A stretch of 64,000 bases of DNA from contig JBIIQM010000001.1 in assembly GCA_044342075.1 (NCBI GenBank), forward strand, positions 15,847-79,846, read 5' to 3'. This DNA comes from Pirellulales bacterium (GTDB lineage: Bacteria; Planctomycetota; Planctomycetia; Pirellulales; UBA1268). The position numbers and the translations under genes are program-made. The notes beneath the pieces are model-generated. The model saw only the letters and a list, made by a program, of their open reading frames with translations, was not told the origin of the DNA and made no database searches. This document shows positions 2,383-63,146 of the stretch, one piece after another. Each line of letters opens with the position of its first letter. The first letter of the stretch is position 1.

Positions 2383-2435
2383 GTAGGACAGGCTTCAGCC
2401 TGTCGCCGTTACTGACAGGCTGAAGCCTGTCCTAC
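2383..2435. repeat. REP inverted doublet
   Basis: GTAGGACAGGCTTCAGCCTGTC, a 9-nt spacer, then the exact reverse complement, between two convergent genes. Confidence 0.92.
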
Positions 2436-3526
2436 TTTTCCGGCACGGTGATCGTGAACTTCTGCTCGCCGGCCGAGTGTTTGAAAAACTCGTCGCGGTT
2501 CCACTGCGGCTGCTCCGAGTCCGTCGGCGATGGCAGATCAAACGTGGCCCGCAGTTCATAGGTGCGGTCGTCGAGCCGCGTGTAGCCGTAGGGCTGCTTC
2601 GTGACCGGGTCGACGGCGTCGACCACGAACGTGTCGGGATCCTTGGCGAGGTCGTCGAGCGTCGCGGGCAACGAGCCTCGCCGCGTGTGAAACTGCTCGA
2701 TGTTGGACTGGAGCGACCGCAGATCGCCGACCCGCTGGCCGTCGAGCCGCAGCATCCTCGCCCGCACCGGGCTGCCGATGAGGCCCAGCGCCGCGGCGAG
2801 CGCCGCCACCGCCATGGCCGTGCCGGCCCGGTCGAGCCACTTCCGCCAAGGCGGCGCGGGTGGCAGTGCGACCGAGTGAGAGGCTGCCCCTGCGCCGAGC
2901 GCCTCCTCGCGGCGGACGTCGCTCGAATACCAGAGATAGATGCCCCCCGCGATGGCCATGACGACGAGCGACTTGAGCGTGAACCGCAGCGTGGCATCGC
3001 CCTCCAGGAAGTTGATCACCAGGCAGATCAAATTGCCCGCCATGATGAGCGCCGTGACGAGGAGCGTGAAGTAGGCAAGTGCCCGATAGATGGGCGTCAT
3101 GCGGGCCATCGGGTTGGCGGCGGCGTCACGGGCGATCGTGCGGCGCACCAGGGCGAGGATCGGCAGTGACACGATCAGCGCGGCAGCTGCCCAACGGAGG
3201 ATTGGATACACGAACATGCCGCGGTCGCCCGGCAGCGGCAGCCAGCGGTCGATGAGCACGAAGAGGATCGAGCCGGTGGCGAGGGCCGCATGGTAGAGCG
3301 TGGCCGTGGAGAGCAGGTTCAAGAACGCGTCGCGTGGCGAGCTCGACACCCGCTTCCGCGGCACGGGCACCGGCAGCGGCGAATCGGCAAACTCATCGAG
3401 CGCGGTCTGCGCCTCGCGTGCCGACCAGCCCGCGTTCTCCAGGCCGCGAGCGATCTCGGCCCGCGACAGCCCCCGTTCGAGGCATGACTTCACGAAGGCG
3501 ACGAGCACGTCAGGGGCGGCTGGCAT
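2432..3526 (-). CDS. integral membrane protein of unknown function
   Basis: 364-aa ORF with a soluble helical N-terminal module, several hydrophobic spans and a soluble C-terminal domain. Its TAG stop lies in a REP head. Confidence 0.6.
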   Translation of the reverse strand: MPAAPDVLVAFVKSCLERGLSRAEIARGLENAGWSAREAQTALDEFADSPLPVPVPRKRVSSSPRDAFLNLLSTATLYHAALATGSILFVLIDRWLPLPGDRGMFVYPILRWAAAALIVSLPILALVRRTIARDAAANPMARMTPIYRALAYFTLLVTALIMAGNLICLVINFLEGDATLRFTLKSLVVMAIAGGIYLWYSSDVRREEALGAGAASHSVALPPAPPWRKWLDRAGTAMAVAALAAALGLIGSPVRARMLRLDGQRVGDLRSLQSNIEQFHTRRGSLPATLDDLAKDPDTFVVDAVDPVTKQPYGYTRLDDRTYELRATFDLPSPTDSEQPQWNRDEFFKHSAGEQKFTITVPEK

Positions 3527-3746
3527 GGCTTTTCATTCCGAAGAAACGGGACTGCAAACCGGCCTAACTGTCGCGGCGCACACATGTTCCGTCCAGCCAG
3601 CAACCGCCAAATATTGGCTGATCCACGGGTTTTTTGACAAACCGGGTGTGTATGCCAGAGTTGAGGGAAGTCGCGGCTGCATCCCGGCTTTCGCCGGCAG
3701 GCATGGATCTGCCGGTCCCAGTCTCTGCGCCAAGGAGGCTCATCTC

Positions 3747-4268
3747 ATGAGTCGTTTGCTCTCCGTTTGCGGCCTTGCCGCCGCTCTGTTGCTCGCCTTC
3801 GGCTCGTCTGCTGAAGCGGGCTTTGGTCATCACCGTCGCCATCTCGACCCCACCTGCGCCGCCCCGGAGGCCACCTGTGCCGCCGAGCCCGGCTGCAGCG
3901 CCTTTGAGCCGGCCTGTGCCATCGAGCCGTCGTGCGGCTTCGAGCCCGGCTGCGGCGCCGAAACCTGCTGTCCGACGAACCCCTGCATCAAGTATCGCCA
4001 CAAGCACGCCCACAAGCACAAGTGCGCCAAGGGCTGCTGCGAGGAGCCGACCTACCAGACCGTGCTCACCCCGACGAGCCCGGAGACCTGCTGCACGGTG
4101 AACGTGCCGGTGTGCCTCCCGGCCTGCTGCCAGGGCTGCCCGTGCGAGACCTCGCGCTGCACGCTCTTCGGCTGCGGCCAGGTTCGCTATGACTACGGCT
4201 GCGGCTGCTCGGTGATCATCCGCTTCCAGAAGTGCGGCGACATCTGCGTGACCTACGTCGGCTTCTAG
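3747..4268 (+). CDS. small secreted cysteine-rich protein (~25 Cys in ~150 mature residues)
   Basis: ATG at 3747 lies 9 nt after AAGGAGG. Signal peptide is MSRLLSVCGLAAALLLAFGSSAEA. It contains C..EP.C tandem heptads, a KYRHKHAHKHKC patch and many CC/CxC pairs, and is followed by an intrinsic terminator. The longer ORF from 3300 is rejected. Confidence 0.75.
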   Translation: MSRLLSVCGLAAALLLAFGSSAEAGFGHHRRHLDPTCAAPEATCAAEPGCSAFEPACAIEPSCGFEPGCGAETCCPTNPCIKYRHKHAHKHKCAKGCCEEPTYQTVLTPTSPETCCTVNVPVCLPACCQGCPCETSRCTLFGCGQVRYDYGCGCSVIIRFQKCGDICVTYVGF

Positions 4269-4285
4269 TCTGCCACGAAAATCGA

Positions 4286-4319
4286 CCCGGCCGGGAGCCC
4301 TCTCCCGGCCGGGTTTTTT
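4286..4319 (+). terminator. rho-independent terminator of the Cys-rich gene
   Basis: CCCGGCCGGGAG-CCC-TCTCCCGGCCGGG stem-loop followed by TTTTTT, 18 nt after the stop codon. Confidence 0.8.
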
Positions 4320-4330
4320 CGTCGATGCAA

Positions 4331-4352
4331 GACAGGCTGAAGCCTGTCCTAC
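4331..4352 (-). repeat. REP unit (supplies the trxB stop)
   Basis: The plus strand reads GACAGGCTGAAGCCTGTCCTAC. Confidence 0.92.
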
Positions 4353-5410
4353 TTGCCTTGGGCGGCGAGCCAGCGTTCGGCGTCGAGGGCCGACATGCAA
4401 CCGGTGCCGGCGGCGGAGATCGCCTGGCGGTAGTAATCGTCGGCCACGTCGCCCGCCGCGAAGACTCCCTCCACGCTCGTGTCGGTACGGAAGTGCTTCT
4501 TCCAGACGATGTATTTCTTCGGCGTGAGCTCGAGCTGGCCGTCGAGGAAGGCGGTGTTCGGCGTGTGGCCGATGGCGAGGAAGACGCCCGCCACGTCGAC
4601 CTTCTCTTCTTTCCCCTTCTCCGTCGTGCTCTCCAGCCGCACGCCCGTCACACCCTTCGCGTCGTCACCGAGCACTTCGGCGAGCGCCGTGTTGAAGTGG
4701 ATCTTGATCTTGGGATCGTCGTGGGCGCGCTGGGCCATGATCTTCGAGGCCCGGAGGGCGTCGCGGCGGTGAACCAGGTGCACCGTGCTTGCAAACTTCG
4801 TGAGATAGGTCGCCTCTTCGACGGCCGAGTCGCCGCCGCCGACGACCACGAGCTCCTTGTTGCGAAAACGCGGCAAGGCACCATCGCAGACGGCGCAGGC
4901 GCTCACGCCCCGGTTCTTGAACCGCTCTTCGCTCGGCAGGCCGAGCCAGTTGGCGCTGGCGCCGGTGGCCACGATCACGCATGCCGCCTCGACCATGCCC
5001 CCTTCGCTCGGATACAGCTTGAAGGGCCGCTTCGAGAAATCAACCTTCACGATGTCGTCGGTGATGATTCGCGTGCCCATATTGACGGCCTGCTGACGCA
5101 TGAGCTCCATGAGCTCGGGACCGGTCACACCCTCGCCGGCATGGGGAGCCATCATCTGCCGCCGAGCCGCGGGCAGGGCGGAATCGAGAAACCCGCCGAG
5201 GTTGCCATGCGGGAAGCCGGCGTAGTTTTCGACTTCGCTCGTGAGGGCGAGCTGGCCGAGCGGGAGCGTGCCGGACATCCGGTTCTTCTCCGAGATCGCC
5301 CCCTCGTAGACGAGCGGCTTGAGCTGGGCGCGGGCGGCGTAGGTGGCGGCCGACCAGCCGGCGGGCCCGCTGCCGATGATGACGATGGTTTCGTGCGTGG
5401 ATGCGGCCAT
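4349..5410 (-). CDS. trxB: thioredoxin-disulfide reductase
   Basis: FAD motif [10 protein letters not shown], redox-active CAVCDG, NADPH motif [13 protein letters not shown]-terminal GVFAAGDV. Its TAG stop lies in a REP head. Confidence 0.93.
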
Positions 5411-7354: not shown

Positions 7355-7482
7355 AACGCGGCTCAGACCGCCCCACCAAGATCTGCGCCGCCTGCGGCCG
7401 GCCGTTCACGTGGCGCAAGAAATGGGAGCGTTGCTGGGAGCAGGTCCGCTACTGCAGCGACCGCTGCCGCGCTTCTACGTAG
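7330..7482 (+). CDS. DUF2256-type small zinc-ribbon protein
   Basis: 50-aa ORF with [29 protein letters not shown]. It overlaps the cstA end by 25 nt, and its TAG stop is in a REP head. Start choice is uncertain. Confidence 0.6.
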
Positions 7483-7557
7483 GACAGGCTTCAGCCTGTC
7501 GTGTCCAGATTCGCTTCCGGAGGAAGCGGTCTACAGACAGGCTGAAGCCTGTCCTAC
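7479..7557. repeat. REP inverted doublet with an inner GTAG-headed hairpin of a second class (7512-7534)
   Basis: Consensus units at 7479-7500 and 7536-7557. The inner element is CGCTTCC-GGA-GGAAGCG-GTCTAC. Confidence 0.9.
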
Positions 7558-9605
7558 TGGAGTTCACGATCCAAAAACGTCCAGCCGAGCGCGTCCATGA
7601 AGGCCCGCTGCTTGTTGTCGGCCGCGCCGCCGTGGCCGCCCTCGATGTTTTCGTAATAGAGCACCTGCTTGCCCTGCTCCATCAGGAGCGCCGTCATCTT
7701 ACGGGCGTGGCCAGGGTGCACGCGGTCATCGCGGGTGCTCGTCGTGATCAGGATCGGCGGGTGAGTCTTCGCCTTATCGACGTTGTGATAGGGGGAGAAG
7801 CCGCGGATGAAACGCCACTCCTCGGGTGAATCCGGGTTGCCGTATTCCCCCATCCAGCTCGCGCCGGCAAGGAGCGTGTGAAACCGGCGCATGTCGAGCA
7901 GCGGCACCTGGCAGACGACGCCGCCGAAGAGGTCGGGCCGCATCGCATACATGTTGCCCACGAGTAGGCCGCCGTTGCTGCCTCCTTTGACGCCGAGGTG
8001 CGCGGGAGACGTCACCTTCCGGCGGACGAGGTCTTCCGCCACCGCGATAAAGTCTTCATAGGCCCGCGGCCGCTTCTCCTTAAGGGCCGCCTGGTGCCAG
8101 GCGGGGCCGAATTCGCCGCCGCCGCGGATGTTGGCGATCACGTAGACGTTTTTCTGTTCGAGCCAGGCCGCGCCGGCGACCGGCTCGTAGCCGGGCAGCA
8201 GCGGGATCTCGAATCCGCCGTAGCCATAGAGCAGCGTGGGCGTGGAGCCGTCGAGCGGAAGATCGTGCGGCCCGATCTGGAAGTAGGGCACCCGCGTGCC
8301 GTCCTTCGAAACGGCCTCGTGCTGGGTCAGCTTTAGCCCCCGCGCGTCGAAGAACGCCGGCGCCTGCTTGAGCCTCTCCGGAGCCGCGCCCCCCACCGTG
8401 CCGAGCGCGAGCGTCGAGGGCTCGAGCGAGCTCGACGTGACGAGGAAGAAGTCGTCGGTTTCGATGTCATCGACCGGGATCGCGCTGCCGGTGCCGATCT
8501 CCGGCACGCCCGGCAGCGGCTCCCGCCGCCACTGGCCGTCGCGAAATGTGAGCGTGAAGAGCCGGTTGCGCACGTTGTCGAGCGTCGTGATGACGACGTG
8601 GTTTTTCGTGGTGGAGAAGCCCGCGAGCGACGTGCGTTCCGTGGGCTCGAAGAGCACGTGCAGCGTGCGGTCGCCGGCGAGAAACCGCTCGAAGTCGGCC
8701 GCCAGGAGGCTGCCCGCCTTGAACGCTTTTCCTCCGGCCTGCCAGTCGCTCCGCAATTCGACGAGCAGCCACTCGCGGTGGACGGCGGCATTGGCGTCGT
8801 CGGGCTTGTCTATCTTTACCAAGGCGCCACCACGGCTTAGAAACAGCTCGTTCGTCCAAAACGTGATCTGCCGCTGCACGAAGTCTCGCTCGAAGCCGGG
8901 CGTGAGATCGCGATAGGCGCCCACGCTCATGTCGTCAGTCCGCCCCTCGTAGACGGTCTTCGCCTCCGCCAGCGGCGCTCCCCGCCGCCATTCCCGCACC
9001 GTCCGCGGGTAGCCCGACGTCGTGAGCGACCCGGGGCCGAAGTCGGTGGCCACGAACAGGCTCTGCTCGTTCCGCCAGGCCACGTTGCTCTTTGCCTCCG
9101 GAAGCGCAAAGCCGCCATCCACGAACGCCCTCTTCTCGAGATCGAACTCGCGGACGACATCTGCATCCGCGCCGCCCCGCGAGAGCGAGACGAGGCAGAG
9201 CCGGTCTTGGGGTTCGAGCACGGTGGCCCCGTGCCAGACCCAGTTTTCATTTTCGGCCGCGGCGAGCGCGTCGAGATCGATCACGGTCTCCCAGGCCGGC
9301 TCGGGCTTCTTGTATTCCTCGAGCGTTGTCCGCCGCCAGAGCCCCTTCGGGTTCTTGGCGTCGCGCCAGAAGTTGTAGAAGCGGTCGCCGATCTTCGAGA
9401 CCATCGGGATCCGGTCCTTCGAATCGAGGATCGACCGAATCCGCGTTTCGAGCCGCTTGAACTCCTCCGACTCGGCGAGCGCCTTCACGCTCTCGGCATT
9501 CCGCGCCCGCGCCCACTCGAGCGGCTTTTCACCGGTTACGTCCTCGAGCCAGAGATGGGGGTCGTGGGGAGTCTCGCTCACTTCGGCAGCGTTGGTGGGA
9601 TGCAT
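7554..9605 (-). CDS. prolyl oligopeptidase family (S9A) serine peptidase
   Basis: N-terminal DPHLWLEDV plus a beta-propeller region. The C-terminal alpha/beta-hydrolase has GGSNGG (nucleophile Ser) and DDRVHP/GGHGG motifs. The ORF upstream of 9605 runs through REPs and proA and is not coding. Confidence 0.88.
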   Translation of the reverse strand: MHPTNAAEVSETPHDPHLWLEDVTGEKPLEWARARNAESVKALAESEEFKRLETRIRSILDSKDRIPMVSKIGDRFYNFWRDAKNPKGLWRRTTLEEYKKPEPAWETVIDLDALAAAENENWVWHGATVLEPQDRLCLVSLSRGGADADVVREFDLEKRAFVDGGFALPEAKSNVAWRNEQSLFVATDFGPGSLTTSGYPRTVREWRRGAPLAEAKTVYEGRTDDMSVGAYRDLTPGFERDFVQRQITFWTNELFLSRGGALVKIDKPDDANAAVHREWLLVELRSDWQAGGKAFKAGSLLAADFERFLAGDRTLHVLFEPTERTSLAGFSTTKNHVVITTLDNVRNRLFTLTFRDGQWRREPLPGVPEIGTGSAIPVDDIETDDFFLVTSSSLEPSTLALGTVGGAAPERLKQAPAFFDARGLKLTQHEAVSKDGTRVPYFQIGPHDLPLDGSTPTLLYGYGGFEIPLLPGYEPVAGAAWLEQKNVYVIANIRGGGEFGPAWHQAALKEKRPRAYEDFIAVAEDLVRRKVTSPAHLGVKGGSNGGLLVGNMYAMRPDLFGGVVCQVPLLDMRRFHTLLAGASWMGEYGNPDSPEEWRFIRGFSPYHNVDKAKTHPPILITTSTRDDRVHPGHARKMTALLMEQGKQVLYYENIEGGHGGAADNKQRAFMDALGWTFLDRELQ

Positions 9606-9628: not shown

Positions 9629-9650
9629 GACAGGCTGAAGCCCGTCCTAC
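9629..9650 (-). repeat. REP unit, variant (G-U in minus sense)
   Basis: GACAGGCTGAAGCCCGTCCTAC, 23 nt upstream of the peptidase ATG. Confidence 0.85.
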
Positions 9651-9843: not shown

Positions 9844-9865
9844 GACAGGCTGAAGCCTGTCCTAC
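9844..9865 (-). repeat. REP unit abutting the proA TGA
   Basis: Consensus 22-mer. The minus sense reads TGA-GTAGGACAGGC... Confidence 0.92.
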
Positions 9866-11127: not shown

Positions 11128-11215
11128 GTGGGACAGGCTTCAGCCTGTCGAAGTAGGTCAGCCTTCAGGCTGACAATAAATGTCGATATTCCCGACAGGC
11201 TGAAGCCTGTCCTAC
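11128..11215. repeat. REP cluster of three units (GTGG-head variant, compensatory-stem variant, consensus)
   Basis: 11128-11149 GTGGGACAGGCTTCAGCCTGTC; 11153-11174 GTAGGTCAGCCTTCAGGCTGAC; 11194-11215 consensus in reverse orientation. Confidence 0.9.
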
Positions 11216-12096: not shown

Positions 12097-12132
12097 GCGG
12101 GATAATTTACACAACCAAAGGACGAGCGAGCC

Positions 12133-12207
12133 GGGGATCGGCGGAACGTCGACGAGCATTTGGACCGAGTCTTCGAGGGCCACCGCGAGGCGACTTCTGC
12201 CGTCCCC
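12133..12207. repeat. MITE-like intergenic element, copy B
   Basis: Same termini as copy A, with a similar left interior (GGCGGAACGTCGACGAGCATT versus GGCGGAAGCTCGAGGAGCGTT) and a shorter centre. Confidence 0.6.
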
Positions 12208-12239
12208 GGCGAGCGGTCTTCTTTCGAAGCGGTCTACGT

Positions 12240-12261
12240 GGCAGGCTGAAGCCCACCCTAC
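12240..12261 (-). repeat. REP unit, variant with two G-U pairs in minus sense
   Basis: Plus strand GGCAGGCTGAAGCCCACCCTAC; minus strand GTAGGGTGGGCTTCAGCCTGCC. Confidence 0.8.
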
Positions 12262-23458: not shown

Positions 23459-24436
23459 ATGAAACCGTCCACCGGAACCGTTCATCACGTCACCGCCGCC
23501 GAACGCGGCCAAACGCTCGCGGCCTTCCTGCGGGCCAAGCTCGGCGCGAGCTGGGGCCGCGTGCAGAAGATGGTGCGATCGCGGCACGTCATGATCCACG
23601 GCAACATCTGCACCGACGCCGCCCGGCGGCTGAAGGATGGCGAGGTGGTGAAGGTTTTGGAGGTGGCGGCGACCGCGCCCCCGAAGGCCGACGACGTGCG
23701 GATCGTCTTCGTCGACGATCAGGTGGTCGTGGTCGAGAAGCCCACGGGGATCACCACGACGCGTCACACTGAGGAGCTCTCCTGGCCCACCCGCCGCCGG
23801 CAGGTGCAGCCCACGCTCGACGAGATGGTGCCGGAGGCGATTCACCAGCACCTCGCGCGGAAGTTCGGCGGCCGCGGGAAGAAGCCGCGGCGGCTGCCGC
23901 CGGTGCGCGCGGTCCACCGCATCGACCGCGAGACGAGCGGCCTCGTCGTCTTCGCGCGGACGGTTCCCGCCGAACGAATCCTCGCCGAGCAGTTTCGGGC
24001 CCACACGACGGAGCGCCGCTACCTCGCGCTCTGCGTGGGCCGCGTGGGATCCGGTTCGATCATCACGAATCTCGTCCGCGATCGGGGCGACGGCCGTCGC
24101 GGCTCGTCGGGCACCGAGGAAGGCAAGCGGGCCGTCACCCACGTCGAGCCGGTCGAGCACTATGGCGACGCCTACACGCTCGTAGCCTGCCGGCTCGAAA
24201 CGGGCCGCACCCACCAGATTCGCATCCACATGGCGGAGACGGGGCATCCCGTCTGTGGCGAGCGGGTCTACTCGGCGCCGCGGCATCTCAAGGTGACCGA
24301 CGACTCGGCCGCGCCACGGGTGATGCTCCACGCCGCCGAGCTCGGCTTCGTGCATCCGGAGACAGGCGAATTGATCCGGTTCGAAAGCCCGCTCCCCGCC
24401 GACATGAAAAAAACCCTTTCTCTCCTCCGCAAGTAG
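23459..24436 (+). CDS. RluA-family pseudouridine synthase (RluD-like, S4 domain plus catalytic domain)
   Basis: S4-like N-terminus and catalytic HRIDRETSGLVVFA. ATG at 23459 (GTG at 23441 possible). Its TAG stop is in a REP head. Confidence 0.88.
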   Translation: MKPSTGTVHHVTAAERGQTLAAFLRAKLGASWGRVQKMVRSRHVMIHGNICTDAARRLKDGEVVKVLEVAATAPPKADDVRIVFVDDQVVVVEKPTGITTTRHTEELSWPTRRRQVQPTLDEMVPEAIHQHLARKFGGRGKKPRRLPPVRAVHRIDRETSGLVVFARTVPAERILAEQFRAHTTERRYLALCVGRVGSGSIITNLVRDRGDGRRGSSGTEEGKRAVTHVEPVEHYGDAYTLVACRLETGRTHQIRIHMAETGHPVCGERVYSAPRHLKVTDDSAAPRVMLHAAELGFVHPETGELIRFESPLPADMKKTLSLLRK

Positions 24437-24485
24437 GACAGGCTTCAGCCTGTCGGAGTCCGGTGGGGCAGGCTTCCAGCCTGCC
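24433..24485 (+). repeat. two tandem REP units (consensus plus GTGG-head variant with a 5-nt loop)
   Basis: 24433-24454 consensus; 24463-24485 GTGGGGCAGGCTTCCAGCCTGCC. Confidence 0.88.
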
Positions 24486-26965: not shown

Positions 26966-27019
26966 GTAGACCGCTTGCTCCGCAAGCGGATCTGCTTGGC
27001 AGGCTGAAGCCTACCCTAC
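26966..27019. repeat. class-2 GTAG hairpin (26966-26989) plus REP variant (26998-27019)
   Basis: GTAGACCGCTTGC-TCC-GCAAGCGG, then GGCAGGCTGAAGCCTACCCTAC. Confidence 0.85.
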
Positions 27020-42962: not shown

Positions 42963-43036
<74 letters not shown>

Positions 43037-43123: not shown

Positions 43124-43138
43124 GTTGGCGATCGGGTC

Positions 43139-44580: not shown

Positions 44581-45438
44581 ATGCGTTTCCTCGCGTTTCT
44601 ATCTCGCAGTCTGCTTCTGTCTACGATCGCGGCGGCCTTGGCCGTGGCGGCGGTCGCGTGTGCACCCCGCCCGGCGGCCGGCGACGTGATCTTCATGGCA
44701 TCGGGCACTTCCAGCCTCGGCACACCGGTGGCGTTTCAGGCCCAGTTCTCCATCGACGGAGACAACCTGAAGATCGTGCTCGACAACCTGTCTCCCAAAG
44801 ACACGACCGACGCGGCCGAAGTGCTCACCAGTTTCTACTTCGACATCTGGAACGGCACGACCCGGCCGACGCTCAAATACGAGAGCGCAAGCGGCTTCGT
44901 CTTTCAGGTGAAGAGGGGGCGGGACAACGACGTGCCGGTCTACTACACGCCGCAGAGATACGAGAAAGCGGAAGACAAGCCGAGCAACCTGCTGGCAAAG
45001 GAGAAAGGCGATGCCTCCTGGCAGTTTTTGGAGATGGATCCCGCGCATGCCCCAAATCTCGGCGTTGGGATCGGCACGGTCGCCAACAATGGCCTCAAGC
45101 CGAACGATTTCACGGCGGCGGTCGTGGGGCCCGCGGGCAACGACTTCATCAACTTCGGGATCTACCGGGGGGGCGATATCAACCCCAGCGGTGTCCTCAA
45201 CAACAAATACGTGGTGAAGAACACCGCCACGTTCAACTTCACCGGGGTGGGCAACTACAAGGAGACCGACATCCGGCCCAAGGCGGTGTTTGGCCTTGGC
45301 ACGACGCCGGACTCGATCGTGGTGGTGCCGGAGCCGAGCACAATCGTGATCGCCGCGAGCGGCGTCCTGCTCACAGCGTGGCGCGCAGGGCGGCGTCGAA
45401 AGGCAGGCTGGAAGCCTGCCCCACCGACGACAGGCTGA
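44581..45438 (+). CDS. PEP-CTERM sorting-domain protein
   Basis: Signal peptide MRFLAFLSRSLLLSTIAAALAVAAVA. C-terminal VVPEPSTIVIAASGVLLTAWRAGRRRK plus an 11-aa tail and stop codon that are encoded by REP units. Confidence 0.8.
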   Translation: MRFLAFLSRSLLLSTIAAALAVAAVACAPRPAAGDVIFMASGTSSLGTPVAFQAQFSIDGDNLKIVLDNLSPKDTTDAAEVLTSFYFDIWNGTTRPTLKYESASGFVFQVKRGRDNDVPVYYTPQRYEKAEDKPSNLLAKEKGDASWQFLEMDPAHAPNLGVGIGTVANNGLKPNDFTAAVVGPAGNDFINFGIYRGGDINPSGVLNNKYVVKNTATFNFTGVGNYKETDIRPKAVFGLGTTPDSIVVVPEPSTIVIAASGVLLTAWRAGRRRKAGWKPAPPTTG

Positions 45439-45450
45439 AGCCTGTCCTAC
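45402..45450 (-). repeat. two tandem REP units overlapping the 3' end of the PEP-CTERM CDS
   Basis: 45402-45424 GGCAGGCTGGAAGCCTGCCCCAC; 45429-45450 consensus. Confidence 0.88.
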
Positions 45451-52313: not shown

Positions 52314-53014
52314 CCGACCAGCAGGCCGCGACGGGCTCCACTTCGGCAGCCGCACCCGCGGGCCCCGGTGGCCGCCACACCGCGTTTGGCCGCTGTCTCT
52401 ATGCCGCGCTCTGGGTGATCTGCCGCACGCTCGGCATCTCGGTCTTCGGCGTGCGCACACGCTTCGCCGAGCCTTTGCCGAAGACGGGCGGCCTGCTCGT
52501 GCTCTCGAGCCACCAGAGCCATCTCGATCCGCTGCTCTTGGGCCTCGCCTGCGACCGGCGGCTTTCGAGCCTCGCCCGCGCGTCGCTCTACAAGTTCAAG
52601 CCGTTCGGCTACGTGATCACGGCGCTCGATGCGGTGCCGATCGACCGTGAGGCCTCCACGGTGGCGGCGATGAAGGCCGTGATCCGGAGGCTGGAAGCGG
52701 GCGCGGCGGTAGTCGTCTTTCCGGAGGGCACGCGCACCCCCACGGGCCGGCTCACCGATCTCAAGAGCGGTTTCGCACTGTTGGCAAAGCGGGCGAAGGT
52801 GCCGATCGTGCCCGTGGCGATCGTCGGCGCCTGGGAATGCTGGCCGCGCACTCGGCTCTTCCCGCAGCCGGGCCGCGTGCGGCTCGAGTTTGGCAAGCTG
52901 CTGATGCCCGAGGAGATCGCCGCCATGGACGAGCGGCAGATCCTCGCCGAATGCACCGCGCGGCTCACGGCCCTCGACGCCGAAGCCCGCCGCATCCGCA
53001 ATCACGGAAAGTAG
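52310..53014 (+). CDS. plsC: 1-acyl-sn-glycerol-3-phosphate acyltransferase
   Basis: ATGA overlap with cmk. HX4D (SHQSHLD) and FPEGTR motifs. Its TAG stop is in a REP head. Confidence 0.85.
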   Translation: MTDQQAATGSTSAAAPAGPGGRHTAFGRCLYAALWVICRTLGISVFGVRTRFAEPLPKTGGLLVLSSHQSHLDPLLLGLACDRRLSSLARASLYKFKPFGYVITALDAVPIDREASTVAAMKAVIRRLEAGAAVVVFPEGTRTPTGRLTDLKSGFALLAKRAKVPIVPVAIVGAWECWPRTRLFPQPGRVRLEFGKLLMPEEIAAMDERQILAECTARLTALDAEARRIRNHGK

Positions 53015-53090
53015 GACAGGCTTCAGCCTGTCATGAAGCACGACAGGCTGAAGCCTGTCATGAAGCACGACAGGCTGAAGCCTGTCCTAC
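53011..53090. repeat. REP cluster of three units with a duplicated 27-bp (spacer plus unit) block
   Basis: Units at 53011-53032, 53042-53059 and 53069-53090. The ATGAAGCAC spacer occurs twice. Confidence 0.92.
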
Positions 53091-56367: not shown

Positions 56368-57846
56368 ATGAAACCCACCACGGCTGAGGAACTCGCGCAC
56401 CGCGCCCAGGAACTGCAGCTGGTCGGTGCCGCCCATCTGGGCGAAGCCTGGACCGAGCTCGGCGGCCACAACGTGCCGATCGAGAAGCTCGGCGCCGTTC
56501 TCGTCCGCCGCGAATTGCTCACGGGCTATCAGCTCGAGCGGCTGCTCAAGGGGGAGCGGACCGGATTCTTCTTCGGGAAGGCCAAGCTGCTCTATCAGAT
56601 CGGCGCCGGCTCGTTCGCCCGGGTCTTCCGCGCGATCAACATCGAAGACGGCAGCATCCTGGCCGTGAAGGTGCTCCGCAGCCGATTCAGCGCCGATGCG
56701 GAGAAGTGCCGGGCGTTTCGCCGCGAGGGCGAGATGGGGCGGCTGCTGCGGCATCCTCATATCGTCGCGATCGAGGACGTGGGGCAGGAAGGCAACACGA
56801 CCTACATCACGATGGAGTTTCTCGAGGGGCAGACGCTGCGCGAGCTCGTGCGAATCCGCGGCGCTCTCGATCTGCCCCGCGCGCTCGATCTCATCCTGCA
56901 GATGGTGTCGGGGCTCGAGTATGCCCATCGCCGTGGCGTGACACACCGCGATCTCAAGGCTTCCAACGTGCTCGTCTCCTCGACGGGGCAGGCCAAGCTC
57001 GTCGATTTCGGGCTCGCCGGCGTCGATGCCGAGGCGGGAGACCGGCACCTCGACCGCACGGAGCAGCCGCGCACGGTGGATTATGCCGCGCTCGAAAAGC
57101 TCTCCGGCATGAAGGACGACAGCCTGCGGAGCGACATCTACTTCCTCGGCACGATCGCCTACCTCACGCTCTCCGGCAAGCCGGCGCTGGCCGAATCGAG
57201 GGACCGGCTCGTGCGGTCCGATCCGCGGCGATTCACGGGGGTCGCGCCCCTCGCGACGGTCGCCGCCGACCTCCCGCGCGACGTGGCCGACGTCGTCGGG
57301 CGGATGATGCAGATCGATCCACTCGAGCGCTGGCAGACGGCCGCCGACGTCCGGCGGGCGCTCGAACCGCTCACCACGAAGTATGCCGCGGGGGGCGCCG
57401 GCCCCAGGTTGGCGACCCGCGATTCCAGCGAATTTCCGGCGCCGTCGGCGATGAGCGCCGAGCGGGCCGCCACGAAGGGCACGATCATGGTGGTCGAGAC
57501 CTCGCAGAAGGCGCAGGAAGCCCTGCGGAGTTTCTTCACGAAGCTTGGCTACCGGGTGCTGGTGACGGAAAACCCCGATCGCGCACTCGTGCGGTTTTCG
57601 ACCACGCCGCTGCCGGCCGACTGTCTCGTGATGAGCACGCAATCGCTCGGCGACGCGGCGGTGCACGCCTTCAACAGGCTCTCGACCGACGCATTCTTCG
57701 CGGCCGTGCCCGCGATCCTGCTCACGAGCCCCAAGCAGAAGTCCCTCTCCAAGCAGGCGAAGCTCGACGGCCTGCGCAAGGTGCTGGAAACGCCGATCCG
57801 CACCGCGGAGATGACGAAGCTGCTCGACTCGCTCGTGAAGAAGTAG
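56368..57846 (+). CDS. Ser/Thr protein kinase with C-terminal degenerate receiver-like domain
   Basis: Kinase motifs GAGSFARVF, AVK, HRDLKASNVLV, DFG. The C-terminal ~120 aa are REC-like. Its TAG stop is in a REP head. Confidence 0.88.
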   Translation: MKPTTAEELAHRAQELQLVGAAHLGEAWTELGGHNVPIEKLGAVLVRRELLTGYQLERLLKGERTGFFFGKAKLLYQIGAGSFARVFRAINIEDGSILAVKVLRSRFSADAEKCRAFRREGEMGRLLRHPHIVAIEDVGQEGNTTYITMEFLEGQTLRELVRIRGALDLPRALDLILQMVSGLEYAHRRGVTHRDLKASNVLVSSTGQAKLVDFGLAGVDAEAGDRHLDRTEQPRTVDYAALEKLSGMKDDSLRSDIYFLGTIAYLTLSGKPALAESRDRLVRSDPRRFTGVAPLATVAADLPRDVADVVGRMMQIDPLERWQTAADVRRALEPLTTKYAAGGAGPRLATRDSSEFPAPSAMSAERAATKGTIMVVETSQKAQEALRSFFTKLGYRVLVTENPDRALVRFSTTPLPADCLVMSTQSLGDAAVHAFNRLSTDAFFAAVPAILLTSPKQKSLSKQAKLDGLRKVLETPIRTAEMTKLLDSLVKK

Positions 57847-57921
57847 GACAGGCTTCAGCCTGTCGCAAGTAGGACAGGCTTCAGCCTGTCGCGATTCATG
57901 ACAGGCTAAAGCCTGTCCTAC
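57843..57921. repeat. REP cluster of three units
   Basis: Units at 57843-57864, 57869-57890 and 57900-57921 (loop variant TAAA). Confidence 0.92.
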
Positions 57922-58652
57922 TCGCGCGAGTGCAGGCCGCACTCCGTCTTTGCCGTGCCGCTCCAACGGCCGGCCCGTTCGTCCTCGCCGGCCAAGATCG
58001 AGCGGGTGCAGGGCCAGCAGCCGATGCTCACATAGCCTTGGTCGTGCAGCGGGTTGTAGGGGATGTTTTCCCGGACGATCAGGTCCCAGACCTTCGCCTT
58101 CGTCCAGTTGGCCAGCGGGGAGATCTTCGCCACGCCAAACTTTCGATCCCAGCCGACGATCGGCGCCGCGGCGCGATCGGGGCTCTGGTCGCGGCGGATG
58201 CCGCTCATCCAGGCGTCGAACCGGGTGAGCACTCGTCGGATCACGGCGATCTTGCGGTCGCCGCAGCAGCGGTTCGAGTCGGTGCGGTAGAGCGGGCCGC
58301 CGTGGAGCCGCTCGTATTCCTCGACGGTGGTGTCGGGCGCCTCGAGCGAGACCTCGATGCCATACCGCTTCGCGAGCCGGTCGCGGAGCTCGAGCGTCTC
58401 CTTGAATTGGTAGCCCGTCTCGAGATTGAAGACGAAGGTCTTCGGGGCGACGGCGGCCAGCCAATGGATGATGGCGCAGCCTTCCGGTCCAAACGCCGTC
58501 GCCATCGTGAGCCGGTCGCCAAACCGCTCGGCCGCCCAGCGGATGATCTCCGGCGGCTCGGCCGATTCGAGCCGCTCGCTGGCGCGGGCCAGTTCTTCGA
58601 GCAGGTCCGCCGGGGGCGCCGCCGCAGCTTTGTCGATGGTTTCAGTCGCCAT
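57918..58652 (-). CDS. cysH: phosphoadenosine-phosphosulfate (PAPS/APS) reductase
   Basis: PAPS-reductase fold with C-terminal ECGLH. Its TAG stop is in a REP head. Confidence 0.88.
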   Translation of the reverse strand: MATETIDKAAAAPPADLLEELARASERLESAEPPEIIRWAAERFGDRLTMATAFGPEGCAIIHWLAAVAPKTFVFNLETGYQFKETLELRDRLAKRYGIEVSLEAPDTTVEEYERLHGGPLYRTDSNRCCGDRKIAVIRRVLTRFDAWMSGIRRDQSPDRAAAPIVGWDRKFGVAKISPLANWTKAKVWDLIVRENIPYNPLHDQGYVSIGCWPCTRSILAGEDERAGRWSGTAKTECGLHSRE

Positions 58653-58848: not shown

Positions 58849-60288
58849 ATGGCTCGTTCCGTTTCACTCGCAGTCGACCTTGGGGCGTCTGGCGGCCGTG
58901 TGGTGTCGGGGGCGTTCGATGGCAGGCTGATCGAGCTGGAGGAGATCCATCGGTTCGAGAATGGACCGGTGGCGCTCGGTGGCGAACTCGTCTGGGATCT
59001 CGTCCGACTCTGGCAGGAGGTGGTGAACGGGCTGCGGGCCTCGGCGGCGCGGCATGGCAAGGCGGTGACGACGGTCGGCGTCGACACCTGGGGGGTCGAT
59101 TACGCCTTTCTCGGTGCCGATGGCGGGCTGCTCGCGAACCCCCTCTGCTACCGCGACCCGCGCAACCGCGGCATGATCGAGGTGGCCGAAAAGACCGTGC
59201 CGCGCGACGAGATCTTCGCCGCCACCGGCCTGCAGTTCATGGATCTCAATTCGCTCTATCAGCTGCTGGCGATGCAGCGCCGCCGCTCGTCGGCGCTCGC
59301 GGCCGCCGAGCGGATGCTGATGGTTCCCGATATCTTCCACTGGCTGCTCTCGGGCGAGGCCTCCAATGAACACACCAACGCCTCCACGTCGCAGTGCTAC
59401 GACCCGCAGCGGCATGACTGGGCCTTCGGCCTCATCGAGCGATTCGGGCTGCCGCGGCGGATCTTCGGCCCGCTCGTCGAGCCGGGCACCGTGCTGGGGA
59501 GCCTGCGGACCGATGTCGCGGCCGAGACCGGCCTCTCCGGCACCCGCGTCGTCGTCCCCGGCACGCACGACACGGCCAGCGCCGTCGCAGCCGTGCCCGC
59601 CACCGACCCGCCGAGCGCGCGGCCCGATTGGTGCTATGTGAGCCTCGGCACCTGGGCCCTCGTGGGGGCGGAGCTCGATCGCCCGCTCGTCACGCCGGCC
59701 TGCCTGGCCCGCAACTTCACCAACGAGGGTGGCATCGGCGGCACGACGCGGCTCCTCAAGAATGTCTGCGGCCTCTGGCTCGTGCAGCAGTGCCGCGCCG
59801 CCTGGCAGCGGGCGGGCAAGGATTGGACATGGGAGCAGCTGACGTCACTGGCCGCCGAGGCGCCGCCGCTTGCCACGATCATCGATCCCAATCATCCCTC
59901 GCTGGTGGCGCCGCCCGACATGCCCGAGGCGATCCGGGCGCTGGCGAAGGCTTCGGGCCAGCCGGTGCCCGAATCGACGGGCGCGGTGGTGCGGACGGCG
60001 CTCGAGAGCGTGGCCGCCGCCGTGAGCCGCACGCTCGAGGAACTCGATTCGCTCGTCGGCCGCCGGATCGGCCGGGTGCACGTCGTGGGAGGCGGAGTGA
60101 AGAACGCGCTGCTCTGCCAAATGATCGCCGATGCCACCGGCCGCCCGGTGATCGCCGGCCCGGTGGAGGCCACGGCGATCGGCAACCTGCTCGTGCAGAT
60201 CATGGCCCGCGAGGGCAGCGTCGATCTACGGAGCGTGCGGCAGGTGGTTCGCGATAGTTTCGAGCTCGCGCACTTCGAGCCACGGTAG
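58849..60288 (+). CDS. rhaB: FGGY-family sugar kinase, rhamnulokinase-like
   Basis: ATG 9 nt after GGGAGG. AVDLGASGGRV, F.N.PV..GG.L.WD, VDTWGVDY and a C-terminal GGG.KN.LL.Q..AD motif. The upstream part of the 58426 ORF is rejected. Confidence 0.75.
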   Translation: MARSVSLAVDLGASGGRVVSGAFDGRLIELEEIHRFENGPVALGGELVWDLVRLWQEVVNGLRASAARHGKAVTTVGVDTWGVDYAFLGADGGLLANPLCYRDPRNRGMIEVAEKTVPRDEIFAATGLQFMDLNSLYQLLAMQRRRSSALAAAERMLMVPDIFHWLLSGEASNEHTNASTSQCYDPQRHDWAFGLIERFGLPRRIFGPLVEPGTVLGSLRTDVAAETGLSGTRVVVPGTHDTASAVAAVPATDPPSARPDWCYVSLGTWALVGAELDRPLVTPACLARNFTNEGGIGGTTRLLKNVCGLWLVQQCRAAWQRAGKDWTWEQLTSLAAEAPPLATIIDPNHPSLVAPPDMPEAIRALAKASGQPVPESTGAVVRTALESVAAAVSRTLEELDSLVGRRIGRVHVVGGGVKNALLCQMIADATGRPVIAGPVEATAIGNLLVQIMAREGSVDLRSVRQVVRDSFELAHFEPR

Positions 60289-60354
60289 GGTAGGCTTCAG
60301 CCTGCCTGATCGCTGCCGGGTCCGATAGGCGTGACAGGCTGAAGCCTGTCCTAC
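60285..60354. repeat. REP inverted doublet (variant plus consensus)
   Basis: 60285-60306 GTAGGGTAGGCTTCAGCCTGCC; 60333-60354 consensus in reverse orientation. Confidence 0.9.
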
Positions 60355-60932
60355 TCGGCAACCGGCTCGGCAACCGGCTCGGCGGGGACTTCTTCAGTCG
60401 TCTCGACCGGCGTTTCTTCCACAGGCGCGGCGATCTCCGGCTCCGGTGGCGGCGAAGGCCGGCGGCCCGCCTGCCGGAAGACGGCGTAGAGCACCGTCAT
60501 GCCGATGAGCGAGGCCCCGATGAAGACGGCCGACCAGATGGCCCGCTTCAGCCACTTCTCGGCGTCCTCCGCCTCCTTCTGCTGCCGCAGCGCTTCCTGC
60601 TCGCGCTGGTATTCGCGACTGTCTTCGAGCCGGATTTCGAAGACGGTATTGCACGTCGGGCAGACCGCCTGCTGGCCGATCATGGCCGGGCCCACCTTGA
60701 GATTGTGGCCATTGGGGCAGGGGATGCGGTAATACTTCGGCCCGCTCGGCCGAGGTGCGGCTGCGGCTGCGGCCGCTGGCGCGGCCGGTGGTGCCATCGC
60801 GACAGGCGGTGGGGCGGCGGGCCGCTGGCGGCCAGTCTCGGCGGGCGTCCGGCAGATGGGGCATACGGGCCGCCCGCCTTCGGGCACGCTCGGGCCCCGG
60901 TAGCCGCAGATGCACGTGATGCTGTCGGACAT
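60351..60932 (-). CDS. double zinc-ribbon membrane-anchored protein, unknown function
   Basis: C.C..17..C..C and C.NGH..16..C..C pairs, a coiled acidic/basic stretch, one TM helix (IWSAVFIGASLIGMTVLYAVF) and an acidic tail. Confidence 0.6.
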   Translation of the reverse strand: MSDSITCICGYRGPSVPEGGRPVCPICRTPAETGRQRPAAPPPVAMAPPAAPAAAAAAAPRPSGPKYYRIPCPNGHNLKVGPAMIGQQAVCPTCNTVFEIRLEDSREYQREQEALRQQKEAEDAEKWLKRAIWSAVFIGASLIGMTVLYAVFRQAGRRPSPPPEPEIAAPVEETPVETTEEVPAEPVAEPVAE

Positions 60933-60941
60933 GGCGATTGA

Positions 60942-62927
60942 TCAGGCAGCCTGGAGGGCTGCCGCCGGCCGTTTCGTGACGACGCCGTGCTCCACTTGGA
61001 TGATCGCATCGGCGAGGGCCAGGGTGCTGGCCCGATGCGTGATCATAATCACCGTCCGGTTTTCCACATATTCGGCCAGCGCCTCGTGGATAAGCCGCTC
61101 GCTCTCCACGTCGATTTGGCTCGTCGCCTCGTCGAGGACGAGGATCTCGGCGTTTCGCAGGAAGGCCCGGGCCAGCGAAATCCGCTGCCGCTGGCCGCCG
61201 GAGAGCCGGAAGCCCCCGGGGCCGACCATCGTGCGGTAGCCCTCGGGCATCAGCGAGATGAATTCGTGGGCGTGGGCCTTCTTGGCCGCCTCGATGACCT
61301 CCTCTTCGGTCGCGTCCCAGCGGCCGTAGCGGATGTTGTAGAAGATCGACTCGTTGAAGAGTTCGGTCTGCTGCGTCACCATCGCGATCCGGCGGCGGAG
61401 GTCGTGCAGGGCGATGTCGGTGAGCGGCACACCGTCGATCATCACCTGTCCCGACGTCGGGTCGTAGAACCGGCAGATCAGGTTCACGAGCGTGCTCTTG
61501 CCGCCGCCATTCGGGCCGACGATCGCCACCCGTTCGCCGAAGGGGATCTTGAGATTCACGTCCTTCAGCACGGTATCGATGCCGTCGTAGCTGAAAGAAA
61601 CCCGCTCGAGCCGGATCTCGCGGTGGGGCGAGACGATCGTCTTCGGCTCGGCCGGCTCCTTGAGCTTCGAGGGGGTGTCGATCAGCGGATAGAGCGCCTG
61701 TGCGCCGACCACGCCCACGTTGACGCCGGTGAGCACGCCCGAGAGCTTCCGCACCGGATCGCTCGCACCGATGAGCATGCCGAAGAAGACCATGATGCCC
61801 GGCACCGTCATCGGCCGCTCGGTCATCGTGAGGCCGAAGATCTCGGTCTGCTGGTTGATCACGAGCCAGGCGCCGACGGCGATCGAGGTGGCCACCATGC
61901 CGATGCCGAGGATTTCGGTGATCGGGTTGGCGAGCGCGTGATAGAAGGAATGCATCATGCCGGTCTTGAGCATGTCGCCGGTGCAGTTGCGAAACCGCTG
62001 CCGCTCGAAATCCTCCATCGTGTAGGCCTGCACGGTGAGCACGTTGTTGAGCGCCTCGAGCAAGACATGATGAAAGCCCCGCGAGCGGTCGAGAATGCTT
62101 TTCGAGATGCCGCGGATCCGCCGGTTGAGCCAGACCATGAGGAAGCCCACGATCGGCGCCATCGTGAGGCAGGCGAGCGTGAGCTGCCAGGAGATGCAGA
62201 AGGCGCCCGCGAGGCAGGCGATGATCTTCAGCGGCTCCGTGATCGCCCCGCCGAAGACGCTCGTGATGCCGCTGGCGAGCATGTCGGAGGTGCCCGTCAC
62301 CTGGGCCATGAATCCTGCCGACCCATTCCGCATGAACTGGGCTCGGTCGAGCTCCAGCGCCTTGTCAAAGACCTTCAGCCGCAGGTCGCGGCTGATGTTC
62401 ATCGCCACCCAGCTCACGATCAGCGTGTTGGCCAGCAGGAAGGCGTGCTTGAGAAACGTGCTCACGACGACGAAGCCCACCACCCAGAGCACGGTGGTGA
62501 AGGGATCCGTGGGCAGGAAGCGGGCGATCCAGGGCTGGAGCTTCTTCGACGAGTAGACGATCGCCTCGTCGCCCCGCATGGAGAGATTGAGTGCATCGAT
62601 GCGACTGCGGGCGGCGGTGGCCTTGCCCCCGTCGAGCCGGCCGTTGTCGAGGTCGGCCGTGAGGGTCTCGCGTTCCTTTTCGCCGGCGGCGATCCGCGTC
62701 TCGGCGGCCTCGATCCGCTCCTCGTTCCATGACTGGAGCGACTTGCCGTTGAGCGTCACTTCGATGATCGGAAAGAGGGCGGCGATATTCGCGCCCCAGA
62801 GTCCGGCCACGCCCGCGGAGCAGAGGAAGGCGGCCACGAGGAGCGGCCACCGCTTGGCGGCATCGCGAAGGGCGCGGAGAAAATAATGCATGCTTTTCGT
62901 TCGGGTCTTGGCGGATGGTGTCGCCAT
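60942..62927 (-). CDS. ABC transporter, fused permease/ATPase (MsbA-type exporter) with a long first periplasmic loop
   Basis: Six-TM ABC_membrane region, Walker A GPNGGGKST, signature LSGGQRQR, Walker B ILVLDEATS. Alternative start at 62891. Confidence 0.88.
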   Translation of the reverse strand: MATPSAKTRTKSMHYFLRALRDAAKRWPLLVAAFLCSAGVAGLWGANIAALFPIIEVTLNGKSLQSWNEERIEAAETRIAAGEKERETLTADLDNGRLDGGKATAARSRIDALNLSMRGDEAIVYSSKKLQPWIARFLPTDPFTTVLWVVGFVVVSTFLKHAFLLANTLIVSWVAMNISRDLRLKVFDKALELDRAQFMRNGSAGFMAQVTGTSDMLASGITSVFGGAITEPLKIIACLAGAFCISWQLTLACLTMAPIVGFLMVWLNRRIRGISKSILDRSRGFHHVLLEALNNVLTVQAYTMEDFERQRFRNCTGDMLKTGMMHSFYHALANPITEILGIGMVATSIAVGAWLVINQQTEIFGLTMTERPMTVPGIMVFFGMLIGASDPVRKLSGVLTGVNVGVVGAQALYPLIDTPSKLKEPAEPKTIVSPHREIRLERVSFSYDGIDTVLKDVNLKIPFGERVAIVGPNGGGKSTLVNLICRFYDPTSGQVMIDGVPLTDIALHDLRRRIAMVTQQTELFNESIFYNIRYGRWDATEEEVIEAAKKAHAHEFISLMPEGYRTMVGPGGFRLSGGQRQRISLARAFLRNAEILVLDEATSQIDVESERLIHEALAEYVENRTVIMITHRASTLALADAIIQVEHGVVTKRPAAALQAA

Positions 62928-63099
62928 AACGAATCGGATTCCTCGCGCCTCCGCGCCAGCGGCATCGTCTGGAAGACGCTCCGGGTAGGCTGCGGGCGGG
63001 TTGAGAAACTGGGCAAACGGGGTCGACGGGCGGCGCCGTATGGGTGGGGAGGGTAGTGATGCCCCCCGAAACGCTCAAGACCGGAAATCACCGCGTCAC

Positions 63100-63146
63100 G
63101 GCAGGCTGAAGCCTGCCCTACTTCAGCAGGCTAAAGCCTACCCTAC
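63100..63146 (-). repeat. two tandem REP variants
   Basis: 63100-63121 GGCAGGCTGAAGCCTGCCCTAC; 63125-63146 AGCAGGCTAAAGCCTACCCTAC. Confidence 0.85.

Follow-up and report, generated by a model that had tools for sequence, protein, structure and literature searches.

Why should so many genes in one stretch of a bacterial genome end exactly on the first letters of a repeat? The question is raised by a window of 64 kb (the whole stretch of DNA that was analyzed) from a freshwater planctomycete, with a GC content of 67%, where repetitive extragenic palindromic (REP) sequences of one family lie at gene 3' ends. The unit of this family is 22 nt long and has the consensus GTAG-GACAGGC-TTCA-GCCTGTC, i.e., a GTAG head, a 7-bp stem, and a 4-nt loop; the 22-mer used to search for it was GTAGGACAGGCTTCAGCCTGTC. 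Of the 42 genes in the window, 15 have the TAG of a head as their in-frame stop codon. The comparisons described below argue that this probably reflects a one-way ratchet, in which the gain of a GTAG-tagged REP overwrites the resident stop codon with the TAG of its head, feeding TAG stops into the genome.

The genes of the window were called with a codon-usage model trained on the window and checked by Pfam, the raw lists of open reading frames (ORFs) being useless at 67% GC. A previous sequence-only reading of this DNA had named 15 genes whose stop is the TAG of a head, and these 15 stops were recovered by the codon-usage call, with Pfam confirming most of them. It had also located the TGA stops of carA and proA 1 nt and 0 nt, respectively, ahead of a head, and this is where they are found. 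The spacing between stop and hairpin is 0 nt in the 15 genes and 3-4 nt in carA and proA, i.e., below 15 nt in all of them. In the REP-terminated genes, the Pfam domains that reach the C-terminus extend to 2-4 residues from the end, and thus the encoded proteins are not visibly truncated.

The stop codons of the 42 genes comprise 20 TAG, 20 TGA, and 2 TAA. Apart from the 15 TAG codons that are heads of the 22-nt family, two abut a second repeat (20312 and 49238), and one belongs to a GTAG followed by a small hairpin (24513). Just two TAG stops lie outside a GTAG context, one at 4268, in a doubtful ORF, and the other at 12832.

When up to three mismatches were allowed, GTAGGACAGGCTTCAGCCTGTC gave 21 matches in the window and none in 100 dinucleotide-preserving shuffles. 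A looser scan combined with direct reading added five diverged units (11153, 12240, 24463, 45402, and 63125), yielding a total of 26. All 26 units proposed in the sequence-only reading are therefore genuine, the starts given for 24463 and 45402 being off by 1-2 nt. Along the window, these units are as follows:

2383..2404 (+), consensus unit; head 1 nt past the TGA of carA (2379-2381); left half of an inverted, head-outward doublet
2414..2435 (-), head TAG (2434-2432) is the stop of a DUF5671 gene (2432-3508)
4331..4352 (-), trxB (4349-5410) stops at the head TAG; beyond it, at 4314-4285, is a canonical intrinsic terminator
7479..7500 (+), head TAG is the stop of a DUF2256 gene (7357-7482)
7536..7557 (-), head TAG is the stop of an S9 prolyl oligopeptidase gene (7554-9605); followed by a tandem GTAG REP of a second family
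9629..9650 (-), one mismatch; upstream of the start of the S9 peptidase gene, on no gene end
9844..9865 (-), head begins 0 nt past the TGA of proA (9868-9866)
11128..11149 (+), GTGG head, not a stop; between folP and proA, flush with no gene
11153..11174 (+), diverged unit GTAG GTCAGCC TTCA GGCTGAC; both stem arms altered, pairing preserved
11194..11215 (-), head TAG is the stop of folP (11212-12183)
12240..12261 (-), variant GTAG GGTGGGC TTCA GCCTGCC, whose head strand has two G.T wobbles; lptE (12258-12776) stops at the head TAG
24433..24454 (+), head TAG is the stop of an RluD-like gene (23459-24436); found in the same place in L015, a locus from a Pirellulales metagenome-assembled genome (MAG)
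24463..24485 (+), subfamily GTGG GGCAGGC TTCCA GCCTGCC, with GTGG head and 5-nt loop; second in tandem, not a stop
26998..27019 (-), variant GTAG GGTAGGC TTCA GCCTGCC; head TAG is the stop of an FHA-domain gene (27016-27660)
45402..45424 (-), GTGG-headed subfamily; a PEP-CTERM gene passes through it tail-first, encoding ..AGWKPAP..
45429..45450 (-), met tail-first by the PEP-CTERM gene (44644-45438), whose stop is the loop TGA (45436-45438, + strand)
53011..53032 (+), head TAG is the stop of plsC (52310-53014)
53042..53063 (-), headless, TCAT replacing GTAG; belongs to a 27-nt tandem duplication
53069..53090 (-), head TAG is the stop of a gene for a 978-aa protein (53087-56023)
57843..57864 (+), head TAG is the stop of a Ser/Thr kinase and receiver gene (56368-57846)
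57869..57890 (+), second tandem unit, with a period of 26 nt
57900..57921 (-), loop TTTA; cysH (57918-58652) stops at the head TAG
60285..60306 (+), variant GGTAGGC/GCCTGCC; head TAG is the stop of an FGGY sugar kinase gene (58900-60288)
60333..60354 (-), head TAG is the stop of a gene for a 193-aa Pro/Glu-rich protein (60351-60932)
63100..63121 (-), variant GGCAGGC/GCCTGCC; second in tandem past folD
63125..63146 (-), variant GTAG GGTAGGC TTTA GCCTGCT; folD (63143 to the end of the window) stops at the head TAG

Heads point toward the 3' end of a gene about 3-5 times as frequently as tails. The sequence-only reading went further, holding that the head always faces the gene, and this has an exception in the PEP-CTERM gene, which runs tail-first through the units 45402 and 45429. 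This gene stops at the loop TGA of unit 45429, and a REP read from its tail thus also provides a stop. The encoded protein gains about 11 REP-encoded residues (AGWKPAPPTTG). In a search for a displaced original stop just past the REP tail, a TGA was seen 0-1 nt from the tail at 53011, 57900, 60285, and 63100; this is suggestive, but it is not separable from a weak ATGA motif of the tail, and we did not build on it.

The coincidence of head and stop extends beyond the window. An exact scan with the 22-mer, taking one genome per species, gave at least 113 stretches, in which the coding frame upstream of each unit was assigned by a GC3-GC2 test. This test replaced a longest-ORF criterion for the upstream gene, which undercounted flush units in 67% GC DNA. 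Among the matches listed for 113 other loci, the offset between head and stop was exactly 0 in 56 of the 135 units that have an upstream gene on the same strand, the expectation being about 2 if units were placed uniformly across the first ~60 nt; each of the other offsets was represented by 1-5 of the units listed. The head-to-stop histogram suggested in the sequence-only reading thus shows its spike at offset 0 in independent loci as well, and the association between REP and stop is far above chance. By group, the offset was 0 in 34 of 62 units from Planctomycetota, in 20 of 66 from Acidobacteriota (among the matches listed), and in 12 of 16 from the window. A further 9 of the acidobacterial units listed are at -3 or -4, with the stop overlapping or abutting the head.

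The type of head points in the same direction. Among 300 distinct units, the head is GTAG in 256 and GTGG in 20. Where an upstream gene could be considered, GTAG heads were flush with its stop in 66 of 140 cases and GTAA heads in both cases (loci L016 and L104), TAA being likewise a stop, whereas none of 6 GTGG heads was flush (16 GTGG units in all). GTGG occurs only at heads that are not stops, which in the window are those of 11128, 24463, and 45402. Because GTGG is never flush and GTAA is, the head is under selection as a stop: heads that serve as stops tolerate only stop-preserving variants. Moreover, flush REPs are kept in place between genomes with 76-88% identity in the flanking coding DNA, the units being ~100% identical.

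To know what stood at these gene ends without the repeat, we turned to orthologous loci. A CysH metagenome scan provided 80 syntenic loci, with 75-95% amino acid identity, whose gene ends were mapped via alignments. The cysH gene ends in GAG TAG followed by the REP (..HSRE) in the window and in L115, and in GAG TGA without REP (..HSKE) in L116 and L117, which share 94-95% amino acid identity with it; in about 40 outgroups, the stop of cysH is TGA. The gene for the 978-aa protein ends in CCG TAG plus REP in the window and, at the same codon, in a REP-free CCG TGA in L114 (90% nucleotide identity) and L161; in L114, this gene and the convergent plsC overlap. The kinase gene ends with AAG TAG and a REP in the window, L114, L120, and L121, and among loci without REP, it ends with AAG TGA in L161, L123, and L140 and with AAG TAA in L122. 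The case of trxB is slightly different. More than 100 relatives end in ..QGVH, and in L197 and L198 (98% amino acid identity), the end reads GGC GTT CAC TGA, followed 6 nt further on by a doublet of another GTAG family. In the window, it reads GGC AAG TAG plus REP, and the gene is shorter by one codon, K replacing VH (..QGK). At this gene end (4268-4352), the window lacks a 3-kb block of L197 (2349-5330) that contains a VWA-domain gene and an ECF sigma factor, and the REP of the window is placed exactly at the junction of this rearrangement. In these alignments, the position of the stop is kept (the same codon in three genes and one codon off in trxB), and the identity of the stop tracks the REP.

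These four comparisons support the idea, already present in the sequence-only reading, that the REP creates the TAG, as does the doubling of TAG usage in the REP-rich clade. For the same genes, at a GC content of 0.65-0.68, TAG accounts for 49% of the stops in the clade of the window, 26% in the next clade, and 22% in the outgroups. In the clade of the window, 34 of 38 TAG stops are preceded by G. When 496 gene ends were considered, a hairpin starting no more than 3 nt from the stop was found at 35 of 91 G-TAG stops, at 1 of 43 other TAG stops, and at 12 of 332 TGA stops.

The hairpins at these ends are replaced quickly. The junction between plsC and the 978-aa gene has the 22-nt family in the window, a second GTAG-headed family in L115, and no repeat in L114, and this switching implies a turnover that is fast relative to the ~10% sequence divergence. 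At the gene ending at 49238, L114 has GAG TAG with the hairpin, L115 has GAG TAG alone, and the window has kept GTAGGAC; judging from this alignment, the hairpin can be missing while the GTAG stays. The locus L196, from the same species in another sample, has three tandem 26-nt units past the kinase gene (2712-2810) in place of the two of the window (57843-57921), so the copy number of the REP array varies within the species. When close loci were all compared with one another for recent indels, one informative presence/absence event of the 22-nt family emerged. Searching for the exact CysH protein led to a single 3-kb contig of the species of the window, which showed a difference in tandem copy number and no empty site. 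We also considered that excision might leave a footprint of the form GTAGCTAC, an idea that was rejected, as 0 copies were present in 1.7 Mb. Other palindromic repeat families, e.g., GTGGGGCGACCGTCTCGGTCGCC and GTAGGGACGGGACTCCAGCCCCGTCC, were seen at the same gene ends in L122, L140, L124, L125, and L185. Another example from these relatives is a single hairpin GTAGCCCAGAGC..GCTCCGGGCTAC whose two heads are apparently the stops of both flanking genes.

The structure of the unit was also analyzed. Its orientation is unambiguous, the GTAG head and the TTCA loop being both asymmetric. Three subfamilies are present in the window: the one of the consensus, a second one with the form GTAG-GG(T/C)AGGC-TT(C/T)A-GCCTGCC, and a GTGG-headed one with a 5-nt loop (24463 and 45402). 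Other atypical heads are the GTGG of unit 11128 and the TCAT that takes the place of the head in unit 53042. The inverted doublets announced by the sequence-only reading are indeed there, five of them, all head-outward, together with tandem pairs (57843/57869 and 63100/63125) and one triplet (53011-53090). We discarded a classification of the family as a miniature inverted-repeat transposable element (MITE), defined by terminal inverted repeats and target-site duplication, because single units are asymmetric in head and loop and their flanks are not duplicated. No Rfam family matches the unit.

In 312 related units, the non-Watson-Crick stem pairs read on the head strand are G.T in 58 cases versus A.C in 4, and fully compensated stems were also found (CACAGGC/GCCTGTG, GGCAGGC/GCCTGCC, and GTCAGCC/GGCTGAC). 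Pairing of the hairpin is thus kept only on the strand of the head, which corresponds to the sense of the mRNA. A single unit folds as RNA with -12.5 kcal/mol (z = -4.1), and the head-outward doublet 2383-2435 folds into one stem of 24 bp with -48.1 kcal/mol (z = -11) that has both stop codons inside. In the transcript, the hairpin would form right after the stop, and the 24-bp stem of a doublet would swallow both stop codons.

It could be thought that these hairpins are intrinsic (Rho-independent) terminators, with which they share a GC-rich stem just downstream of the gene, but they differ in having no U-run: there is no T-run past the units. At trxB, a separate canonical terminator, flagged by the terminator scan at 4284-4315, is located 16 nt past the REP, and therefore the REP is not the terminator of this gene. 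Among the REPs, the scan flagged only the doublet 2386-2432 and the unit on its right, 2414-2431; the T-run there comes from the antisense strand of a gene end. We consequently rejected the terminator role; by analogy with REPs elsewhere, the hairpin is most likely a 3'-end barrier or stabilizer.

The identical 22-mer is not confined to one phylum. It was found in Planctomycetota (Pirellulales, Planctomycetia, and Planctomicrobium) and in many Acidobacteriota MAGs, on contigs of up to 2.7 Mb. The acidobacterial copies have an additional conserved tail, nGGTTT, and resemble longer REPINs. Stray matches in MAGs of Verrucomicrobiia, Kapaibacterium, Saccharimonadales, Heliomicrobium, and Acidimicrobiales are possibly binning noise. 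That a 22-nt REP is common to Planctomycetota and Acidobacteriota suggests, as far as sequence comparison goes, a cross-phylum transfer of the REP system.

In other bacteria, GTAG REPs are recognized by RAYT, an enzyme of the Y1/HUH type, through the GTAG and the hairpin. The window has no RAYT or other Y1 gene according to Pfam on all small unassigned ORFs, in agreement with the sequence-only reading, and in 193 related loci, which are genome fragments, no RAYT was detected by tblastn/phmmer with the E. coli RayT and none by a regular expression for the HUH...Y motif. The rare class 3 Y1 HuH enzymes described mainly in Planctomycetes and Acidobacteria have flanking structures with a CnGA foot (Quentin et al. 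2018; PMC6006769). Such an enzyme may be the cognate one, a candidate for which the pair of phyla agrees but the foot is CnGA and not GTAG, and we take it as a lead only. Logos of the flanks of the units gave a weak preference for A at -1 and -2, with no clear target. We tried to fit the CT/CA cleavage rule of TnpAREP to these flanks, but there is no enrichment of C at -2, and no insertion chemistry could be derived.

How, then, did the heads come to lie on the stops? We propose that the 22-nt family consists of selfish or domesticated hairpin repeats, existing as singletons, head-outward inverted doublets (REPINs), and short tandem arrays. The arrival of a REP at a gene end would replace TGA or TAA by the TAG of the head, and purifying selection on the gene would then freeze the head while the hairpins turn over; these would be exchanged, amplified, or lost, GTAG footprints remaining. 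We consider this ratchet the probable explanation. Some points weigh against it. Its apparent polarity is assigned by parsimony from four genes only, three of them within one 11-kb region. The kinase gene ends in AAG TAG in L124 and L125, which are REP-free and may represent either footprints or empty target sites. Neither the window nor ~1.9 Mb of related DNA (genome fragments) yielded a RAYT or other Y1 enzyme, and mobilization by RAYT is assumed. The known cleavage sites of TnpAREP (CT/CA) would not predict a head exactly on the old stop, and the role of the hairpin in RNA is one that we infer.

Alternatively, GTAG could be the integration site, as TTAC is for IS608, with the hairpin inserting 3' of a GTAG that was already there; in a compact genome with 67% GC, the tolerated GTAG sites would be mostly NNG-TAG gene ends, and REPs would accumulate on existing TAG stops. 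This would account for the presence of the hairpin in L114 and its absence in L115 after an identical GAG TAG, for the AAG TAG at the kinase end of the REP-free relatives L124, L125, and L116, and for the G that already precedes the stop in the REP-free orthologs of three genes. We nevertheless find it unlikely, since it does not explain why, with the same genes and GC, TAG reaches 49% in the REP-rich clade and 22-26% in its sister clades. In addition, cysH has TGA in the sister and ~40 outgroup loci, with TAG and REP arising on the same short branch; the last codon of trxB was altered too (GTT CAC TGA to AAG TAG); tandem arrays repeat the GTAG in every unit; and biochemistry puts the GTAG within the REP as its guide and recognition motif (PMC8266576).

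Another alternative is that the flush hairpin is adaptive for the genes, instead of following from the dynamics of the element, i.e., a cassette selected by the host that would tune termination through ribosome pausing, transfer-messenger RNA (tmRNA) tagging, and lower output or would give maximal protection from 3'-exonucleases without a 3' untranslated region. We regard this as quite improbable. The genes concerned (folD, folP, trxB, cysH, plsC, lptE, the kinase, and hypotheticals) have no common function, and the same junction bears different REP families or none in close relatives, which looks like turnover and not like a conserved regulatory need. The maintenance of the hairpin specifically on the mRNA-sense strand fits such a cassette, but strand-specific pairing is predicted equally by the recognition of single-stranded DNA by RAYT. 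Also in its favor are the conservation in place of flush REPs at 76-88% flanking coding identity and a precedent in E. coli, where REPs lie within 15 nt of the stop (as cited in PMC12306157). Finally, survivorship alone might suffice: REPs would insert without preference anywhere that is not lethal, and the copies that capture a stop, being undeletable, would outlive the free-standing ones. Fast turnover of the non-flush copies, conservation in place of the flush ones, and the selection seen on flush heads are as expected from it. Random insertion, however, would spread C-terminal truncations and extensions, and the stop is at the old codon in three of four genes and one codon off in the fourth; besides, the hairpin is sometimes deleted with the TAG left in place, so that it would be protected two-fold or so at best. 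We therefore give very little weight to this possibility and retain the overwriting of resident stops by incoming heads as the probable course of events.

We put forward more tentatively, as possible but less than probable, the combined view that this GTAG REP family steers the stop usage of the lineage and that a REP-enzyme pair was transferred across phyla. If this is true, ~90% of the TAG stops of this region derive from REPs, as heads or as footprints, and REP gain has raised TAG to about half of all stops, with REP loss leaving the TAG behind. A cross-phylum transfer of REP and enzyme, possibly with a class 3 Y1 HuH, would contradict the strictly vertical view of REPIN-RAYT systems.

The window contains other repeats and genes that deserve mention. 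The second GTAG-headed REP family has the form GTAGACCGCTT(C/G)C-NNN-G(G/C)AAGCGG and is present at 7503-7534 (-), 12205-12237 (-), and 26966-26997 (+). It stands in tandem with or inverted beside units of the 22-nt family, and in L115 (plsC) and L197 (trxB region), it fills the junctions that the 22-nt family occupies in the window. A MITE-like element of ~93 bp with 22-bp terminal inverted repeats (AAAAAGGTGTCAGGACTCTTTT) has two copies, at 20219-20311 and 49242-49334, that begin 0-3 nt past the G-TAG stops of a cdsA-like gene (20312) and a Rex-like gene (49238). The copy at 49238 comes after GTAGGAC, apparently the stump of a unit of the 22-nt family that is intact in L114. At 31546-42915 (+), a single ORF of ~3,789 codons with a strong coding signal possibly encodes a giant surface or adhesin-type protein. 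A tRNA-Arg(TCG) adjoins a toxin-antitoxin-like pair of the HEPN / nucleotidyltransferase (MNT) type (43139-43994; region 42963-43994), and a tRNA-Gln(TTG) (26819-26889) lies just downstream of the REP pair past the FHA gene.

The overlap of REPs and genes has several consequences. A repeat has been made part of the coding signal in housekeeping genes such as folD, folP, trxB, cysH, and plsC. For annotation, it means that REPs and gene ends overlap in these genomes and that TAG usage is not a neutral function of GC there. In evolutionary terms, it suggests that a repeat family can shift stop usage through a ratchet and that its REPs can become hard to lose. For the biology of REPs, this clade offers filled, empty, and footprint alleles, with which insertion specificity and horizontal transfer are directly testable.

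The idea that a REP can be a stop codon, as proposed in the sequence-only reading, is right but not new, since it was published in 2013 with the definition of the GTAG-tagged REP superfamily (Di Nocera, De Gregorio & Rocco 2013, BMC Genomics 14:522; PMC3733652). This superfamily, which includes the SMAGs of Stenotrophomonas and GTAG-20/21 of Rhodopirellula baltica, has members in Planctomycetes (R. baltica) and Verrucomicrobia, and its placement after genes and its G.T pairing were noted. In that paper, the statement that GTAG REP termini often supply the TAG stop of flanking ORFs takes one sentence, without counts, polarity, or consequences. The likeness to the family of the window is close: an unpaired 5' GTAG, a stem of 6-13 bp, and a short loop; units that stand alone, in dimers (head-head, tail-tail, or head-tail), or in clusters, located after genes where ORFs converge or run in the same direction; G.T pairs in the stem that suggest a strand-specific role; and termini that often give the TAG stop. 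Indeed, the 22-nt family has all the structural traits of the superfamily, i.e., a 20-40 bp palindrome, an unpaired GTAG, a dispersed and high-copy occurrence after genes, and dimers or clusters. Its stem and loop, GACAGGC TTCA GCCTGTC, are absent from the main text and supplements compared (the consensus list of Figure 1 was outside the comparison), and the peptides listed there for the R. baltica REPs are unlike those found here. With respect to the published text as compared, what differs here is that the overlap is quantified, TGA or TAA is replaced at the same codon, TAG usage is doubled, and one 22-mer is present in two phyla. We consider the result moderately new, for the stop-codon ratchet and for one REP common to two phyla, the basic phenomenon being in print since 2013.

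The REPIN-RAYT or REPtron systems of Pseudomonas and E. coli (Nunvar 2010; Bertels & Rainey; Ton-Hoang 2012; Corneloup 2021) resemble the present one in their inverted doublets, which form one long hairpin, in the GTAG as the motif for recognition and guidance, in the tandem amplification that changes copy number, and in REP copies that are more alike than the surrounding DNA. They differ in that REPINs have been described as strictly vertical and lineage-specific, whereas the 22-nt unit is identical in two phyla, and in that the cognate RAYT was not located in the window and the 193 related loci, which are genome fragments. In E. coli, a REP located less than 15 nt from the stop has been reported to make ribosomes pause, with tmRNA tagging and a lower output of protein (Liang, Rudd & Deutscher 2015, as cited in PMC12306157). 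The stalling and trans-translation considered in the sequence-only reading would be an extension of this E. coli precedent to the planctomycete. Both cases have in common, as far as that citation describes the E. coli one, a stable REP hairpin that is nearer to the stop than the ribosome footprint. REP and stop are distinct elements in E. coli, whereas in the planctomycete, the stop is within the REP, with zero spacing, in about a third of the genes.

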